A stretch of DNA of 64,000 bases. Source: Candidatus Aminicenantes bacterium. Lineage in GTDB: Bacteria > Acidobacteriota > Aminicenantia > Aminicenantales > UBA4085. The notes under the pieces are model-generated. The model saw only the letters and a program-made list of their open reading frames with translations. It made no database searches and was not told the origin of the DNA. Position 1 is the stretch's first letter. Each line of letters begins with the position of its first letter. The position numbers and the translations under genes are program-made. Of this stretch, positions 26,827 to 32,482 are shown in pieces. The DNA lies in contig CAWDOL010000014.1 of assembly GCA_963803915.1 (NCBI GenBank), positions 24,871 through 88,870 on the forward strand. The letters run 5' to 3'.

Positions 26827-28902
26827 TCATGCCCGGGGAGCGGATTCGGCTTCACGGAAGGTCAGGGTGAAGGCCGTCCCGTTCGCCCGGTCGAGCTCGA
26901 TCGTCGCGCCCAACTGGCCGGCCAGCAGGTTCACGATTTGAAGACCCAGGCTTTCCGCTTGGCGAAAATCCAAGCCTTCCGGGAGCCCGACGCCGTCATC
27001 CGCGATTCGGATTTTGATTGCGCCGTCGGGCCCCTGCTTAACCCCGAGCCGTATGACGCCGGCCTGGTTCTCCGCGAAGGCATGCTTGAGCGCGTTGGAG
27101 ATCAGCTCATTGAGGAGCAGCCCGCAGGGGACGGCCGAGCTGATGCCTAGGGCGACATCGTCAATATCCGTTTCCAGCCTGATGAGGCCGGGCAGGGGCC
27201 GGTAGAAATGGACCAGCTGGACGGCCAGGCTCTGGATATACCCGCCCAAATCAATGCGGGACAGATTGGCCGATTGGTAGAGCTTCTCGTGAACGAGGCT
27301 GATGCTGCGAATGCGCGCCTGAGACTCCTTGAGGATAGCCCGGCCGTCTTCGTTGAGGATTTGCCCGGCCTGGAGGTTGAAGAGGCTGGAAATGACCTGC
27401 ATGTTGTTCTTGACCCGGTGGTGGATCTCCCGGAGCAGGACTTCCTTTTCCTTCAACGAGGCCAGGACCGACTCCTCGGCGTTTTTCAGGCTGTCGATAT
27501 CGGTGCATGTGCCGAACCACTTTTGGACTTTGCCGGCTGCGTCGCGATAAGGCGTGCCGCGGATCAACCACCAGTGGTAGGCTCCGTCGGCGCGGCGCAA
27601 ACGGCACTCGAGCGAGTAGACGGCGCCGAATCGAGTCGCGTTTTGCCAGGCGTCCCAAGCCCGCTGCCGATCGTCCGGATGGAAAGGCTTATTCCACCCG
27701 TGCCCGTAGCTCTCCTCCAGCGTCTGTCCCGTGTAATCCACCCATTGCCGGTTAAAATATATGTTCCAGCCGTCCGGACGGGTGATCCAGACGATCTGCG
27801 GCATGGCCTCGGCCAGCGAATGGAACTCCTTTTCGCTCTCCCGCAGCACCTCCTCGGCCTTCCTTCGATAGGACACATCCGTCAGCAGAACCAGCCGGGT
27901 CGTGGATCGGCCGTCGGGGTCGGCTACGAAAGAGAAGCTCATCTGGTATGTCCGCGGTTCCCCTCCTCGATCCAAGACAATTTCCGTGTTGGGTTCGGAC
28001 GTTTGGCCGGGCAGGCCGAATCGGTCGGGCCATTGCGGCAAAACCTGTTTCACGGGCAAGCCCCTGGCGGCCGAGATCTTCACCCCGAGCAGCTGCTCCG
28101 CCGCGGGGTTCGCATCGACGATACGGTCCCACTGGTCCAGCACAAAGATGGAAGCCTCTATCCGCTCAAAAACGGTATCGCGGGCCAGGGGAATGACTTT
28201 ATGGAGATGGAAACGAGGAAGAGACCAGACCAGCAACAGGCCGCCGGCAAAGGATGCCCACGGCGTGATTCCCACCGACAGCTTCCAAGTGCGGCTCAAG
28301 CCGAGCGTCTCGACCAGAGCGGCCAGCATGGGCAGCGACGCGGCCGTCAGAAGGCCCAGGGATTCCCGGAGTCGGCCCTTGTGCCGGCGGAGGACGTTCT
28401 TGACCAGGAGGACGCTTCCGGAGAGGGCCAGAGCGAAGTTATAGGCCATTCCAATCCCATAGACGAGACCATAGGCGGGCTGAAGCGGAAGATAAGGATT
28501 GACGCTATTCAGGCCTGGGCTGCCCCAGATCAGATGGTGAAGCGAATTGGTCCAAATTCCCAGGAGGACGAGGCCCGGCATGACGCCCAGGAGAACGTAG
28601 GTGCGCCGGCTGAGCCAGCGGTTGGATCCGAGATGGTGAACGATATACAGCCACCAGAAGGTGATGGCGATGGTGCCCCAAATGAGCTGAGCCCCCATCA
28701 AATAGCTCTTGGGGCCGGGAACCGGCAGTCCTATCTCGATGGCGTGCGACAGCATCCACATCGAGCACGACAGCAGAAGCGTGGATCCGAAGAGCCTCGC
28801 CCGGCGGTTAAGATCCCTCCAGGGAAAATAGATCGCCAGAACGAGGATGCATGCCGAAGCCGAGATCTCCGAGATGACGCCGGCAGACCATTGCCACGAC
28901 AT
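26827..28902 (-). CDS. 7TM (HisKA_7TM) + two PAS + HisKA_2 sensor histidine kinase
   Basis: Seven hydrophobic N-terminal segments; PAS_3 ([12 protein letters not shown]); [17 protein letters not shown]; [16 protein letters not shown]. Confidence 0.9.
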
Positions 28903-28985
28903 GATAAGCAACGCCCCCTCTGGTTATGGCTTCCCTTTCGTGCCTTAAGCATAGCTCAAGCGGCCGCGTTATTCAAAGTAGGAGG

Positions 28986-29061
<76 letters not shown>

Positions 29062-29179
29062 ACCCTGAAGGGGACCTCACTCTAGCATTTTTCGGGGGAT
29101 TTTTCCAGCCGGCGGGCCGATACCGCGGCCGGCCCCCGGCGACTCGCGCCCGGGAGCCGGAATATACGGATCCCCGCAT

Positions 29180-29208
29180 TTGAAAACCCTCGCGGAGCCT
29201 CCTATAAT
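29180..29208 (+). promoter_or_regulatory. Near-consensus sigma70 promoter of the cytochrome operon
   Basis: TTGAAA-N17-TATAAT; GGGAGG RBS precedes ATG 29242. Confidence 0.7.
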
Positions 29209-29241
29209 AGAAGGCACGCATCATCGGCTCGGGAGGCCAAC

Positions 29242-30585
29242 ATGGGCAAAGTTTGGAAGATCGCCGCCGTGGCCGCCGTCACGGCCTTCGGCATCCTGAT
29301 CGTCGCGGGGGCCGCGCCGGCCCAGAAGAAGACCTACGACTTGTTCGAAACCCCTCAGCGCTGCGCCCAGTGCCACAGGGAGATCCACACCGAGTGGAAG
29401 TCGTCCATGATGTCCCAGGCCTACACCCACCACTGGGACGAGATCGAGTACTTCGGGCTGGCCGTGCCGCAGGCGGACAGGGACCCCAAGGTGGCCGAGG
29501 TCAAGGCCGGCTGCAACGTCTGCCATGCCCCGGCCGCCTTCTTCATCGGCGACACACCGCCGCCTCTGCCCTCGGCCAACAGCCGGGCCAACGAGGCCGT
29601 GGCCTGCGACATCTGCCACACCATTTCGGGCTTCCAGGGCGACACGCCCTTCAACGGGAACTACATCCTGAACCCCGGCAAGGTCAAGTTCGGCCCGCGG
29701 GCGGGTGTGGTCTCGCCCTTCCACGAGACCCGGCAATCGGACTTCATCAAGTCCGCCGACTTCTGCGGCACCTGCCACAACGAGAAGAGCCCCTACGGGA
29801 TCTGGGTCAAGAGCACCCACCTGGAGTGGAAGGAGGGCCCCTACGCCAAGCAGGACGTCCGCTGCCAGGACTGCCACATGTGGCGCTACCCCGGCAAGAG
29901 CGCCGACATGGGCCAGCCCCTGCCCGACCTGGCCCACCACAACTTCCCGGGCGCCCATGTGCCCGCCAAGTACCGCGGCACGGTCGAGCTGAAGGTCTAC
30001 GCCGACGCCGAAGAGTACGAGCCGGGCGACAAGGCCGTCTTCAAGGTCCACCTCTACAACGCCAAGACGGGGCACAAGTTCCCGACCGGCTCGGTGGAGG
30101 ACCGCCAGCTCTGGCTGGAAGTCCACGCCGTGGACGCCAAGGGCAACCGCTTCAAGCTGCCCGTGGACAAGAAGGGCTTCCCGGGCGAGGAGTACACGAT
30201 CTCGTCCAACACCCTGGCCTACCAGGACATCGGCGACATGATGCTGGGCTTGCCCGACTTCGCCGGCCTCAAGCGCGACGACCTGGAGGAAGGCCACCGC
30301 GTCTTCCGCATGGCCTACTTCGATCCCAAGGGCCGCATGACCATCGGCCAGTGGAACACCAGCGCCTTGGGAACGGACTACCGGATCGGGCCGCGCGAGA
30401 CCAAGATCGAGCAGTACACCTGGACCCTGCCGCAGACCCTGCCCGAGGGGACGCTGCGCATCGAGGCCAAGCTGAACTACCGCCTGCTGGTCAAGAGTGT
30501 GGCCGACTACCTCAAGGTGCCGGCCGACGAGTCCGAGATCCGCGAGATCAACGCCGAGACGGCGGAAGTCAAGATCGTTTACTGA
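29242..30585 (+). CDS. Periplasmic pentaheme c-type cytochrome with C-terminal beta-rich domain
   Basis: Signal peptide; five CxxCH motifs (CAQCH, CNVCH, CDICH, CGTCH, CQDCH). Confidence 0.9.
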   Translation: MGKVWKIAAVAAVTAFGILIVAGAAPAQKKTYDLFETPQRCAQCHREIHTEWKSSMMSQAYTHHWDEIEYFGLAVPQADRDPKVAEVKAGCNVCHAPAAFFIGDTPPPLPSANSRANEAVACDICHTISGFQGDTPFNGNYILNPGKVKFGPRAGVVSPFHETRQSDFIKSADFCGTCHNEKSPYGIWVKSTHLEWKEGPYAKQDVRCQDCHMWRYPGKSADMGQPLPDLAHHNFPGAHVPAKYRGTVELKVYADAEEYEPGDKAVFKVHLYNAKTGHKFPTGSVEDRQLWLEVHAVDAKGNRFKLPVDKKGFPGEEYTISSNTLAYQDIGDMMLGLPDFAGLKRDDLEEGHRVFRMAYFDPKGRMTIGQWNTSALGTDYRIGPRETKIEQYTWTLPQTLPEGTLRIEAKLNYRLLVKSVADYLKVPADESEIREINAETAEVKIVY

Positions 30586-30595
30586 GGAGCGCGCC

Positions 30596-31750
30596 GTGAA
30601 CGTGAAGAAAATCCTGCTCACCCTGGCCGCCCTGGCCGCCCTGGTCCAGTCGGCGGCCGCCATCCCCGCCTTCGCCCGCAAGTACGGCTACTCCTGCGAG
30701 GTCTGCCACGCCCCGGTGCCGCACCTCAAGGCCTTCGGCGAGGAGTTCATGGACAACGGCTACCGCATCCCGGACAAGGAGCCGCCGCGGGCCACCGTGG
30801 ACACGGGCGACCCGCTTCTTCTGCTGCAGCGCGACCTGCCGCTGGCCATGCGCTTCGACGCCTACCTCGGCTACGCGCCCAACGCCGCCGGGGCTAAAAC
30901 GGACTTCATGGCGCCCGTGGCCATGAAGATCCTGAGCGGCGGCAGCATCTCGGAGACGGTCTCCTATTACACCTACTTCTTGATGTCCGAGGACGCCAAG
31001 GTGGTCGGGCTGGAAGACACCTACTTGAGCTTCCGGGGTGTTTTCGGCCTGCCGGTCGACATCGTTTTCGGCCAGTACCGGGTGACCGACCCGATCAAGG
31101 CCACCGAGACCCGCCTGACTCTCCAGAACTACGCCGCCTTCAAGTTCCGGGTCGGGGACAGCCGCATCAACCTGGCCTACGACCGCGGCATCATGGCCGT
31201 CACGGGGACGAATTTCGGGACGGACTTCATCCTCCAGGTGGTCAACGGCAACGGCATCGAGGAGCAGGACATCTTCGACTCGGACAAGTACAAAAGCCTG
31301 ATCTACCGCGTGGCCCAGGGCTTGGCCAAGGGCAAGCTCCGGGTCGGCCTCCTCGGCTACAGCGGCAAGGAAGCGGGGGAGGACGGGCGGACCAACGCGG
31401 TCACCTACTTCGGCCCCGACCTGCGCCTGCGCCTGACGGGAGTCGAGCTTCTGCTCGAGTACGTGCGTCGGACCGACACGAACCCGCTCTTCCTGGCGGC
31501 CGAGGACAAGATCACTTCCGACGCCTTCCTGGCCGAGGCCGTCATCAGCCCCTGGGGCGAGAAGGGACGGACCTTCTTCACCGCGGCCTGGAACCGGGTC
31601 GACTCGGGGCTCGAGCCGGCCAGCCAGAACACGCTGACCCTGAACGTGAACTACCTGCTGCGGCGGAACCTGAAGTGGGTGGCCGAGTACACCCATGACC
31701 TGCTGCGCGACGACCATCGGCTCCTGACCGGCATCGTGACCGCGTTCTAA
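30596..31750 (+). CDS. Cyc2-like monoheme cytochrome-porin fusion (outer membrane)
   Basis: GAGGAG RBS, GTG start; signal peptide then IPAFARKYGYSCEVCHAPVPHLKAFGEEFMDNGY; rest alternating beta-strand pattern ending in C-terminal Phe. Confidence 0.8.
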   Translation: MNVKKILLTLAALAALVQSAAAIPAFARKYGYSCEVCHAPVPHLKAFGEEFMDNGYRIPDKEPPRATVDTGDPLLLLQRDLPLAMRFDAYLGYAPNAAGAKTDFMAPVAMKILSGGSISETVSYYTYFLMSEDAKVVGLEDTYLSFRGVFGLPVDIVFGQYRVTDPIKATETRLTLQNYAAFKFRVGDSRINLAYDRGIMAVTGTNFGTDFILQVVNGNGIEEQDIFDSDKYKSLIYRVAQGLAKGKLRVGLLGYSGKEAGEDGRTNAVTYFGPDLRLRLTGVELLLEYVRRTDTNPLFLAAEDKITSDAFLAEAVISPWGEKGRTFFTAAWNRVDSGLEPASQNTLTLNVNYLLRRNLKWVAEYTHDLLRDDHRLLTGIVTAF

Positions 31751-31787
31751 ACGGGATCGCTCGCCTGAAGGGCCGAATGGGTCCGAC

Positions 31788-31816
31788 TTGCGAGAGGGGC
31801 CGGATCGGTCTATGCT
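31788..31816 (+). promoter_or_regulatory. Putative sigma70 promoter of the lipoprotein gene
   Basis: TTGCGA-N17-TATGCT; GGGAGG RBS before ATG 31856. Confidence 0.5.
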
Positions 31817-31855
31817 GAAGCCAACTCAAAGCGGGAAGGCTTCGGGAGGGCAACC

Positions 31856-32482
31856 ATGAAACAACGGCGAATCGTCGTTCTGGCGGCGGCGCTGGCTCTG
31901 CTCATCGGCCTGCAGAGCTGCGCCACGCTGGAGCAGCTCGCAGGCGCTCTGGTCAACCTGCAGCGGCTCAAGTTCAAGCTGGGTGCCGTGCACGATTTCT
32001 CCGTCCTGGGCATCAACCTGGGCGGCAAGGCGCGGCTGCAGGACTTCACCGCGGCCGAGGGGCTGCGCCTCGTGCAGGGCTTCGCCTCCAGGCGCCTGCC
32101 GGCCGAGTTCGTCTTGAACATCCTGGCCGTCAACCCCAACGACGGCACGGGTGGATCCAAGCAGACGGTCACGACCTTGACTGGGCTCGAATCGCGCCTG
32201 CTGATCGACGGAAAGCCCACAGTCACCGGCAACATCGACCGGCCGATCGAGATTCCCGGCACGGGGCAGGAATCCACGATCGGCATCCGGCTGGGCATCG
32301 ACCTTTATGAATTCTTCGGCCAAGGGGGGTATAACGACCTGCTCGGCCTGGCCTTGGCCATCGGCGGCAAGAGCGGAAGCTCGTCACGGCTGTCGCTCGA
32401 TGCCCTGCCCACGGTCACCACGCCGTTCGGCCCGCTCACCTACCCCAACCGCATTACCATCATCAACACCGAGTTTCGGTAG
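31856..32482 (+). CDS. Lipoprotein, possibly LEA_2-like beta-sandwich
   Basis: Lipobox LQSC after hydrophobic stretch; beta-rich mature part (LKFKLGAV, SRLLIDGK, IEIPG..STIGIRL). Confidence 0.65.
   Translation: MKQRRIVVLAAALALLIGLQSCATLEQLAGALVNLQRLKFKLGAVHDFSVLGINLGGKARLQDFTAAEGLRLVQGFASRRLPAEFVLNILAVNPNDGTGGSKQTVTTLTGLESRLLIDGKPTVTGNIDRPIEIPGTGQESTIGIRLGIDLYEFFGQGGYNDLLGLALAIGGKSGSSSRLSLDALPTVTTPFGPLTYPNRITIINTEFR

Follow-up and report, generated by a model that had tools for sequence, protein, structure and literature searches.

A pentaheme cytochrome gene and a Cyc2-family cytochrome-porin gene inherited as a pair in Candidatus Aminicenantes and other mostly anaerobic bacteria

The gene for Cyc2, a fused cytochrome-porin, is the most widely used genetic marker of microbial iron oxidation, and on the strength of this gene, surveys with FeGenie count Aminicenantes, Ignavibacteriales, Zixibacteria and Krumholzibacteria among the potential iron oxidisers. 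A two-gene locus of Candidatus Aminicenantes bacterium raises the question of what the product of such a gene does in an organism that looks like an anaerobic heterotroph, and in which direction electrons pass through it. The locus occupies positions 29180-31750 of the window, which is a stretch of 64,000 nucleotides (nt) of contig CAWDOL010000014.1 (assembly GCA_963803915.1; positions 24,871 to 88,870 of the forward strand). It contains two open reading frames (ORFs) on the + strand. ORF1 (29242-30585) and ORF2 (30596-31750) encode a pentaheme c-type cytochrome of 447 amino acids and a Cyc2-family fused monoheme cytochrome-porin of 384 amino acids, respectively.

The features of this locus exceed chance by far, and hundreds of genomes carry these two genes together. 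The pair is best explained as one operon whose two products form a redox module in the cell envelope. Because hundreds of sediment bacteria, most of them anaerobic, have inherited both genes as a unit, the genes probably specify a compact electron path across the outer membrane and are probably not a marker of aerobic iron oxidation. A first-pass annotation of the window, made from its letters, had proposed an electron conduit of two proteins here and had left the direction of electron flow open, which is judged to have been right.

The heme-porin and its pentaheme partner

Cyc2 proteins have been described by a signal peptide, one CXXCH motif, a PXL motif downstream of it, a length of at least 365 residues and a porin domain with some 16 beta strands (Keffer et al. 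2021, PMC8406198). The motif AXPXFAR[Q/K][T/Y] just upstream of CXXCH is stated to be unique to Cyc2 (PMC8406198). By inspection, ORF2 begins with the signal peptide MNVKKILLTLAALAALVQSAAA|IPAF, which shows the positive charges of an n-region, a core of hydrophobic residues and an AxA site and ends in AAA; a helix is placed at residues 3-20 in the AlphaFold2 model. The Cyc2 signature (30659-30727, + strand) is composed of A22-IPAFARKY, GYS, C34EVCH38, APV and P42HL. The stretch AIPAFARKY (A22-Y30) matches AXPXFAR[Q/K][T/Y] and ends three residues before C34, and the same spacing between motif and heme site is found in the more distant Cyc2-like proteins that were retrieved. C34EVCH38 is the single CxxCH of the protein and is invariant in 31 homologs, and the PXL element is present as P42-H-L44. 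The residues P24, F26, A27, R28, Y30, C34, C37, H38 and P42 are invariant in these homologs (n=31, 42-80% identity). The start of the mature protein had been quoted by the first-pass annotation, and it is encoded exactly so, IPAFARKYGYSCEVCHAPVPHLKAFGEEFMDNGY; the Cyc2 signature recognised there is present with all of its published motif elements, and the protein ends in Phe as described (C-terminus ...IVTAF).

The remainder of ORF2 had been expected to form a beta-barrel, and an AlphaFold model had been named as a check. The AlphaFold2 model built on the 31-homolog alignment (pLDDT 77.9, pTM 0.75) agrees with this expectation, with 16 long strands predicted between residues 84 and 383. The best Foldseek matches of the model are the 16-strand porins OmpU, OmpF, OprP (2o4v) and OprO (4rjw), with E values of 1e-11 to 1e-9. 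OprP and OprO are also the templates named in the Cyc2 paper (PMC8406198). A profile of the ORF2 clade was aligned over its full length with two other Cyc2-like groups (HHalign probability 100%, E values 7e-55 and 1e-70, 341-353 columns). One of these groups contains a protein of Ca. Nitrospira defluvii, which is among the candidate taxa with cyc2 or sulfocyanin homologs in the FeGenie paper (PMC7005843). In a whole-library profile search, 3,521 representative clusters were matched at E <= 1e-3, which indicates a very large family. Searches of ORF2 against Pfam, NCBIfam and PDB sequences were all empty; since the Pfam and NCBIfam libraries hold no Cyc2 model, their silence is no evidence against membership. 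Judged by its sequence and its modelled fold, which show every feature listed by Keffer et al., ORF2 belongs to the Cyc2 family.

ORF2 shares with the tested Cyc2 proteins the signal peptide, the single CxxCH, AxPxFAR[K/Q][T/Y], PxL, the length of at least 365 residues and the 16-strand barrel with matches to OprO and OprP. Unlike the other Cyc2 proteins, it belongs to a separate clade of FCB-group phyla and Acidobacteriota, has PxLK instead of PxLN, and has a mature form of about 368 residues versus 404-423 residues. The genes of its clade also differ in standing nearly always directly after a pentaheme gene, and most of the organisms that carry them are anaerobic heterotrophs in which oxygen reductases are lacking.

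The pentaheme protein encoded by ORF1 has a hydrophobic N-terminus, which may be a signal or an anchor, and five CxxCH motifs, in agreement with the earlier description of a secreted cytochrome with five such motifs. The motifs C41AQCH, C91NVCH, C122DICH, C175GTCH and C208QDCH are encoded at 29362-29376, 29512-29526, 29605-29619, 29764-29778 and 29863-29877 (+ strand), respectively. The ten motif Cys and five motif His are invariant at all five positions in 30 homologs of ORF1. The first heme motif is of the CxxxCH type, e.g., CGTSCH, in about half of the related loci (L008, L009, L011, L013, L017 and others), so that plain counting of CxxCH reports only four hemes there. Pfam matches of ORF1 are to generic multiheme models (Cytochrome_C7, C554 and NNT). 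Its best NCBIfam match is ExtKL (NF040886; 65.6 bits versus a cut-off of 250, E 3e-18), and the DmsE/MtrA models reach 25.7 bits versus a cut-off of 192.

The closest solved structure to ORF1 is the penta-heme cytochrome c552 of Thermochromatium tepidum (5ZE8), which was found both by sequence profile and by fold. A profile of the 30 ORF1 homologs matched 5ZE8 in the PDB with an E value of 1.3e-15, in three aligned stretches over residues 40-440. The AlphaFold2 model of ORF1 (pLDDT 87.7) consists of a helical five-heme N-terminal domain and a C-terminal Ig-like beta-sandwich, and 5ZE8 is its only strong Foldseek match (E 9.8e-20, 475 columns, TM 0.54/0.62). ORF1 and c552 have in common the five-heme N-terminal domain, the C-terminal beta-sandwich and an H-x-x-P-T-G loop. 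They differ in that identity is only about 19%, and in the alignment the segment of c552 from heme motif 4 to heme motif 5 contains a Cys that is present in none of the ORF1 family.

A second relative of the same fold is MccSep (ExtKL) of Geobacter sulfurreducens, a selenocysteine-dependent polysulfide reductase described in 2026 (PMC13510729; PDB 9WT8/9WT9). Heme 2 of MccSep is ligated by His and Cys239, and the residue Sec325 (U325) in the GHSIPDGU loop is essential (peptide VEMTNHAGHSIPDGUPTPNR) (PMC13510729). ORF1 resembles MccSep in its five CxxCH motifs, its Ig-like C-terminal domain, its cap-and-stem shape and a GHxxPxG loop toward heme 2, and likewise is a periplasmic protein encoded beside an outer-membrane porin gene. 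The loop is present in ORF1 as GHKFPTGS (G277-S284; 30070-30093, + strand), aligned to GHSIPDGU of 9wt9, and its residues G277, H278, P281, G283 and S284 are invariant in the 30 homologs. Unlike in MccSep, the position of the catalytic selenocysteine is occupied in this alignment by the invariant Ser284 in place of Sec or Cys. There is also no Cys available to ligate the active-site heme: no Cys beyond the ten of the heme motifs is conserved in the 30 homologs, and ORF1 has NEKSPYGIWVKSTHLEW between heme motifs 4 and 5, where Cys239 of MccSep lies. Since both the catalytic selenocysteine and the Cys heme ligand are missing, ORF1 is most likely an electron wire or store and not an enzyme. Five His outside the motifs (H63, H161, H233, H239 and H278) are invariant in the 30 homologs and probably suffice for bis-His ligation of all five hemes. 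The link to MccSep and c552 shows one pentaheme scaffold serving in one case as an enzyme and in another, probably, just to carry electrons.

In porin-cytochrome complexes such as MtrAB, MtoAB and PioAB, and OmbB-OmaB-OmcB of Geobacter, a membrane-spanning cytochrome with at least eight hemes runs through a barrel of 20-26 strands that has no heme of its own. The pair is similar to these complexes in that the gene for a multiheme cytochrome of the periplasm adjoins that for a barrel of the outer membrane, with a proposed electron path across this membrane. It is unlike them in that the predicted 16-strand barrel is too narrow for ORF1 and carries its own single heme, that the partner has five hemes, and that no extracellular cytochrome belongs to it. 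An Mtr-type porin-cytochrome complex was rejected on account of the wrong barrel size and the heme of the barrel itself.

Operon layout and inheritance of the pair

A sigma-70-type promoter (TTGAAA-17 nt-TATAAT; 29180-29208, + strand) lies 33 nt upstream of the ATG of ORF1. The near-consensus promoter noted in the first reading holds up, with 11 of 12 consensus positions, and it is the only sigma-70-like site in 28900-32000, where shuffled sequence gave a mean of 0.2. The spacer between ORF1 and ORF2 (30586-30595, + strand) has 10 nt and carries a GGAG ribosome-binding site, located 6 nt before the GTG start codon of ORF2. The 384-residue protein therefore begins at the distance of 10 nt that had been given for it. 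This spacing is compatible with co-transcription and coupled translation of both genes, and the corresponding spacers of related loci are mostly of 8-20 nt.

Relatives of ORF2 were found in more than 575 loci in a scan with one genome per species, and counts were made on the best 80 of these. Of the 80 loci, 78 encode a homolog of ORF1, nearly always directly upstream and on the same strand. The 80 loci span about ten phyla and include Aminicenantes, Thermoanaerobaculia, Ignavibacteria/Melioribacteraceae, Bacteroidota, Calditrichota, Zixibacteria, Krumholzibacteria, Gemmatimonadota, Latescibacterota, KSB1 and others; an assembly of Melioribacter roseus is among the pair-bearing genomes. The pentaheme homologs are 53-77% identical to ORF1, and the porins 38-62% identical to ORF2, so that the pentaheme protein is the better conserved of the two. 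An all-against-all clustering of the flanking ORFs of the 80 loci revealed no third conserved gene.

One exceptional locus is cut at a contig end. Another was observed in a metagenome-assembled genome (MAG) of Gemmatimonadaceae (L016:4983-6726, the same as L250:1821-3564), in which a Cyc2-like gene lacks the upstream pentaheme gene and is followed by a gene for a monoheme cytochrome of 170 amino acids. This exception falls inside the paired clade and looks like a swap of partner. In one further locus, a gene for a protein of 843 amino acids is inserted between the pentaheme and porin genes.

The pairing is confined to this part of the family. The pentaheme gene was absent from 58 of 58 loci around a proteobacterial Cyc2 branch; a locus search seeded with a distant homolog returned MAGs of Thiobacillus, Acidiferrobacterales and Woeseiaceae. 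It was also absent from 120 of 120 loci of the PxLN-type Cyc2, which were found by the degenerate DNA pattern FAR[KQ]..C..CH...P.LN and are mostly from MAGs, together with Ca. Nitrospira defluvii. In a tree of 154 Cyc2-like proteins, the paired porins are gathered in one clade of 42 rows, of which 40 are paired (support 99). The pairing requires three state changes on this tree, versus about 36 with shuffled labels; the tree is a quick FastTree analysis and has several long branches outside the paired clade.

Within the class Aminicenantia, the porin gene is present in 122 of 301 genomes, in 74 of the 166 high-quality genomes (45%) and in 32 of 94 genera, nearly always in single copy. Strong matches to the pentaheme protein adjoin the porin gene on the same contigs. 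In a single clade of the Cyc2 family, the two genes are thus strictly inherited together, and this holds for about ten phyla. Conservation of the pairing across genomes had been named beforehand as a test of the conduit, and the 78 of 80 loci and the adjoining matches throughout Aminicenantia bear it out.

Other pentaheme proteins are also encoded in this class. Paralogous c552-like pentahemes of about 470 amino acids (E about 1e-105 to the ORF1 profile) are found mainly in genomes without the Cyc2-like porin, examples being G249:C24:717-2021, G107:C25:34587-35909 and G168:C20:514-1821. A further pentaheme family of about 390 amino acids (E about 1e-43) occurs in partly different Aminicenantia genomes.

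Direction of electron flow

The genome of this organism has a size of 4.2 Mb in 30 contigs, a GC content of 65% and a completeness of 76%. It contains few cytochromes, namely the pair, NrfH and NrfA, a di-heme peroxidase-like protein and one membrane-anchored hexaheme protein. A cytochrome c assembly gene is present, which makes heme attachment feasible. The nrfH-nrfA nitrite reductase locus lies outside the window (contig C15:360461-362599, - strand). The frame of NrfA is split, with an N-terminal part bearing three heme motifs in one frame and a C-terminal part bearing two motifs in another, so that the gene is either a frameshift pseudogene or broken by an assembly indel. The hexaheme protein (C15:343938-345707, - strand; also outside the window) has about 590 amino acids and six CxxCH motifs, and its best NCBIfam match has about 22 bits versus cut-offs of 192-400. 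Only about four multiheme proteins are encoded in the genome, and this one could be the inner-membrane partner of the pair. The model PF03264 for NapC/NirT-type quinol dehydrogenases also weakly matches the pentaheme protein itself.

No heme-copper or bd oxidase was found in this genome, at its completeness of 76%, and no heme-copper oxidase in any sampled genome of the same genus, which is in line with the anaerobic heterotroph suspected by the first-pass annotation. Among Aminicenantia, heme-copper oxidase is encoded in 18 of 122 pair-bearing versus 17 of 179 pair-less genomes (p 0.20), and bd oxidase in 39 of 122 versus 46 of 179, which is no enrichment. Either type is encoded in 43 of 122 pair-bearing versus 51 of 179 pair-less genomes (odds ratio 1.4, p 0.25). 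Conversely, 104 of the 122 pair-bearing genomes (85%) are without heme-copper oxidase and 79 (65%) without either type, a trend softened by the incompleteness of draft genomes, many of them MAGs. The pair has no link to oxygen reductases in Aminicenantia. Because 79 of the 122 carriers lack an oxygen reductase, aerobic iron oxidation, with electrons passed from Cyc2 through a periplasmic cytochrome to a cbb3 or aa3 oxidase, is unlikely to be the general role of the pair.

In the proposed mechanism, the barrel of ORF2 would sit in the outer membrane with its single c-type heme on the N-terminal segment, probably inside the pore. ORF1 would be its dedicated periplasmic partner, with an Ig-like stem topped by an alpha-helical cap that holds the five hemes. 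The pentaheme protein may dock at the periplasmic face of the barrel and exchange electrons with the barrel heme, and its heme chain would lead to or from a quinol dehydrogenase of the inner membrane and the quinone pool. The only candidates for this dehydrogenase in the genome are the NrfH-type tetraheme protein and the membrane-anchored hexaheme protein. With outward flow, surplus reducing equivalents would be passed onto acceptors small enough for the pore, e.g., chelated Fe(III) and quinone or humic compounds. Given a suitable acceptor, the module could also work the other way round and oxidise Fe(II).

Of the readings considered, a conduit that runs mainly outward is the most likely one, at about even odds. 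This direction is favoured by the carriers, which are mostly anaerobic heterotrophs without oxidases, by the partner, which has no catalytic site and probably bis-His hemes, and by the description of its structural relative c552 as low-potential. The latter term is taken from the title of Chen et al. 2019, as cited in PMC13510729. The measured potentials of Cyc2 proteins range from -130 mV up to +208 mV (the latter value from PMC8406198), and the Cyc2 family as such therefore dictates no direction. A more specific version is put forward only tentatively and is rather doubtful. According to this version, the cassette is an outward terminal reductase of heterotrophs, both anaerobic and facultative, in the FCB group and Acidobacteriota. 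Fermenting cells would use it to pass electrons through a heme-bearing pore onto chelated Fe(III), humic quinones or comparable small acceptors.

Several points weigh against the proposed conduit and its outward direction. The Cyc2 proteins tested biochemically, which are Cyc2 of A. ferrooxidans, Cyt572 of Leptospirillum, Cyc2PV-1 of Mariprofundus and Cyc2TAG1 of Ghiorsea, all oxidise Fe(II), and a reductase function has been shown for none of them (PMC8406198, PMC13692758). The paired clade is known from genes alone, and contact between ORF1 and ORF2 is suggested by synteny only. The bis-His ligation and low potential of ORF1 are likewise presumed, from conserved residues and a distant relative. 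The absence of oxidases is soft, with a genome that is 76% complete and many MAGs among those compared, and the encoded NrfH and NrfA could in principle accept electrons derived from Fe(II). Facultative aerobes such as Melioribacter also carry the pair, and no single direction need hold for all carriers.

A first alternative is the canonical inward function of Cyc2, in which the pore heme oxidises dissolved Fe(II) and the pentaheme protein carries the electrons inward, either for energy or for detoxification of Fe(II). The acceptor would be nitrite reduction by NrfA/NrfH in this organism and oxygen in the oxidase-bearing relatives. ORF2 has all of the published characters of Cyc2, whose characterised members are all Fe(II) oxidases (PMC8406198, PMC13692758), and FeGenie-based studies have read the Aminicenantes genes in this way (PMC7005843, PMC7914226). 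Genes for NrfH and NrfA are at hand, and heme-copper oxidases occur in some carriers (18 of 122); however, NrfA is frameshifted in the assembly, and the large oxidase-less fractions of the pair-bearing genomes, together with the lack of enrichment, do not fit oxygen as the usual acceptor. The usual downstream partners of Cyc2 are absent among the oxidases and multihemes that were searched, a search that did not include Cyc1/c4, rusticyanin, ACIII and bc1. The absence of a pentaheme partner from the canonical and other Cyc2 branches suggests a different wiring, and a pentaheme with probable bis-His ligation and probably low potential would be an uphill acceptor for electrons from Fe(II). On balance, the inward function is unlikely.

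A role in iron acquisition or in metal and redox homeostasis is still more improbable. Reduction of Fe(III) chelates inside the pore or at its mouth would let Fe(II) pass into the periplasm, or oxidants would be quenched at the surface. Such a role would suit a single-copy, stand-alone operon with a housekeeping-type promoter outside respiratory gene clusters, found in fermentative anaerobes with very few other cytochromes, and Fe2+ is presumed to be able to enter the Cyc2 pore (PMC8406198). It is at odds with the patchy presence of the pair (the 45% of high-quality Aminicenantia genomes given above), which is unexpected for a core function, and with the large investment of six hemes for an assimilatory need. 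Neither an iron-uptake gene nor a third partner is conserved with the pair, and the promoter region shows no obvious Fur box by eye, no formal Fur-box search having been made. Highly improbable is a third alternative, in which ORF1 is an MccSep-type reductase of polysulfide, sulfur or selenite and ORF2 is mainly a porin for substrate import, as ExtI is for ExtKL. The match of ORF1 to ExtKL is the best in NCBIfam and the fold and GHxxPxG loop are shared with MccSep, which in Geobacter is encoded beside a porin (PMC5877670). The same match is far under the cut-off of its model, the partner porin is a heme-bearing Cyc2 and not of the ExtI type, and both essential residues are missing, with Ser invariant for Sec325 and no counterpart of the Cys239 ligand in 30 homologs. 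An MccSep-type polysulfide reductase is largely refuted by these missing catalytic residues and was rejected as an identity for ORF1.

Consequences for the marker gene and surroundings of the pair

The presence of Cyc2 genes in Aminicenantes is already known from the literature. Cyc2 homologs of Ca. Aminicenantes were reported with FeGenie in 2020 (PMC7005843), and FeGenie cyc2 hits have been listed for MAGs of Aminicenantales, Aminicenantia and Krumholzibacteria (PMC7914226). Cyc2 homologs have also been found in Ignavibacteriaceae and Bacteroidetes (PMC6344600). FeGenie iron-oxidation genes have been reported from MAGs of Ignavibacteriales and Zixibacteria, and Cyc2 cluster 3 was the dominant iron-oxidation gene at the sites studied (PMC8478452). 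The obligate pentaheme partner, its c552/MccSep fold and the restriction of the pairing to one clade were not found described in the literature searched. The pair is unmentioned in the multi-omics paper on Melioribacter (PMC5492636) and the genome paper on Caldithrix (PMC5317091), as well as in a 2026 review of iron oxidation, a 2023 sequence-network paper and a 2024 survey of multihemes.

The separate branch, the five-heme partner and the mostly oxidase-less Aminicenantia weaken the usual reading of the marker for these abundant sediment and subsurface bacteria. If the module is an outward reductase, the Cyc2-based calls of iron oxidation for these lineages would have the wrong sign, and a whole branch of Cyc2 would work within a so far undescribed conduit of two proteins and six hemes. 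The pair is a simple, testable system of two genes with cultured carriers such as Melioribacter, and with it one can ask if electron flow through Cyc2-type pores is reversible or if these pores have some other use.

Downstream of the pair, the spacer of 105 nt after ORF2 was empty in a terminator scan, its hairpins having no U-tract and no significant stability (z -1.5). It is followed directly by a lipoprotein gene (31856-32482, + strand) encoding 208 amino acids with the lipobox LQSC. This lipoprotein had no match in Pfam and NCBIfam, and none of the 80 related loci has a counterpart of it beside the pair. Upstream and divergent from the operon lies a gene for a 7TM-PAS-HisKA_2 histidine kinase (26827-28911, - strand), which no response regulator adjoins. 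Of the 80 related loci, 8 have a member of a histidine kinase family close to the pair. Between this kinase gene and the promoter of the pair is a tRNA-Ala(CGC) gene (28986-29061, - strand), which is likewise divergent from the operon.

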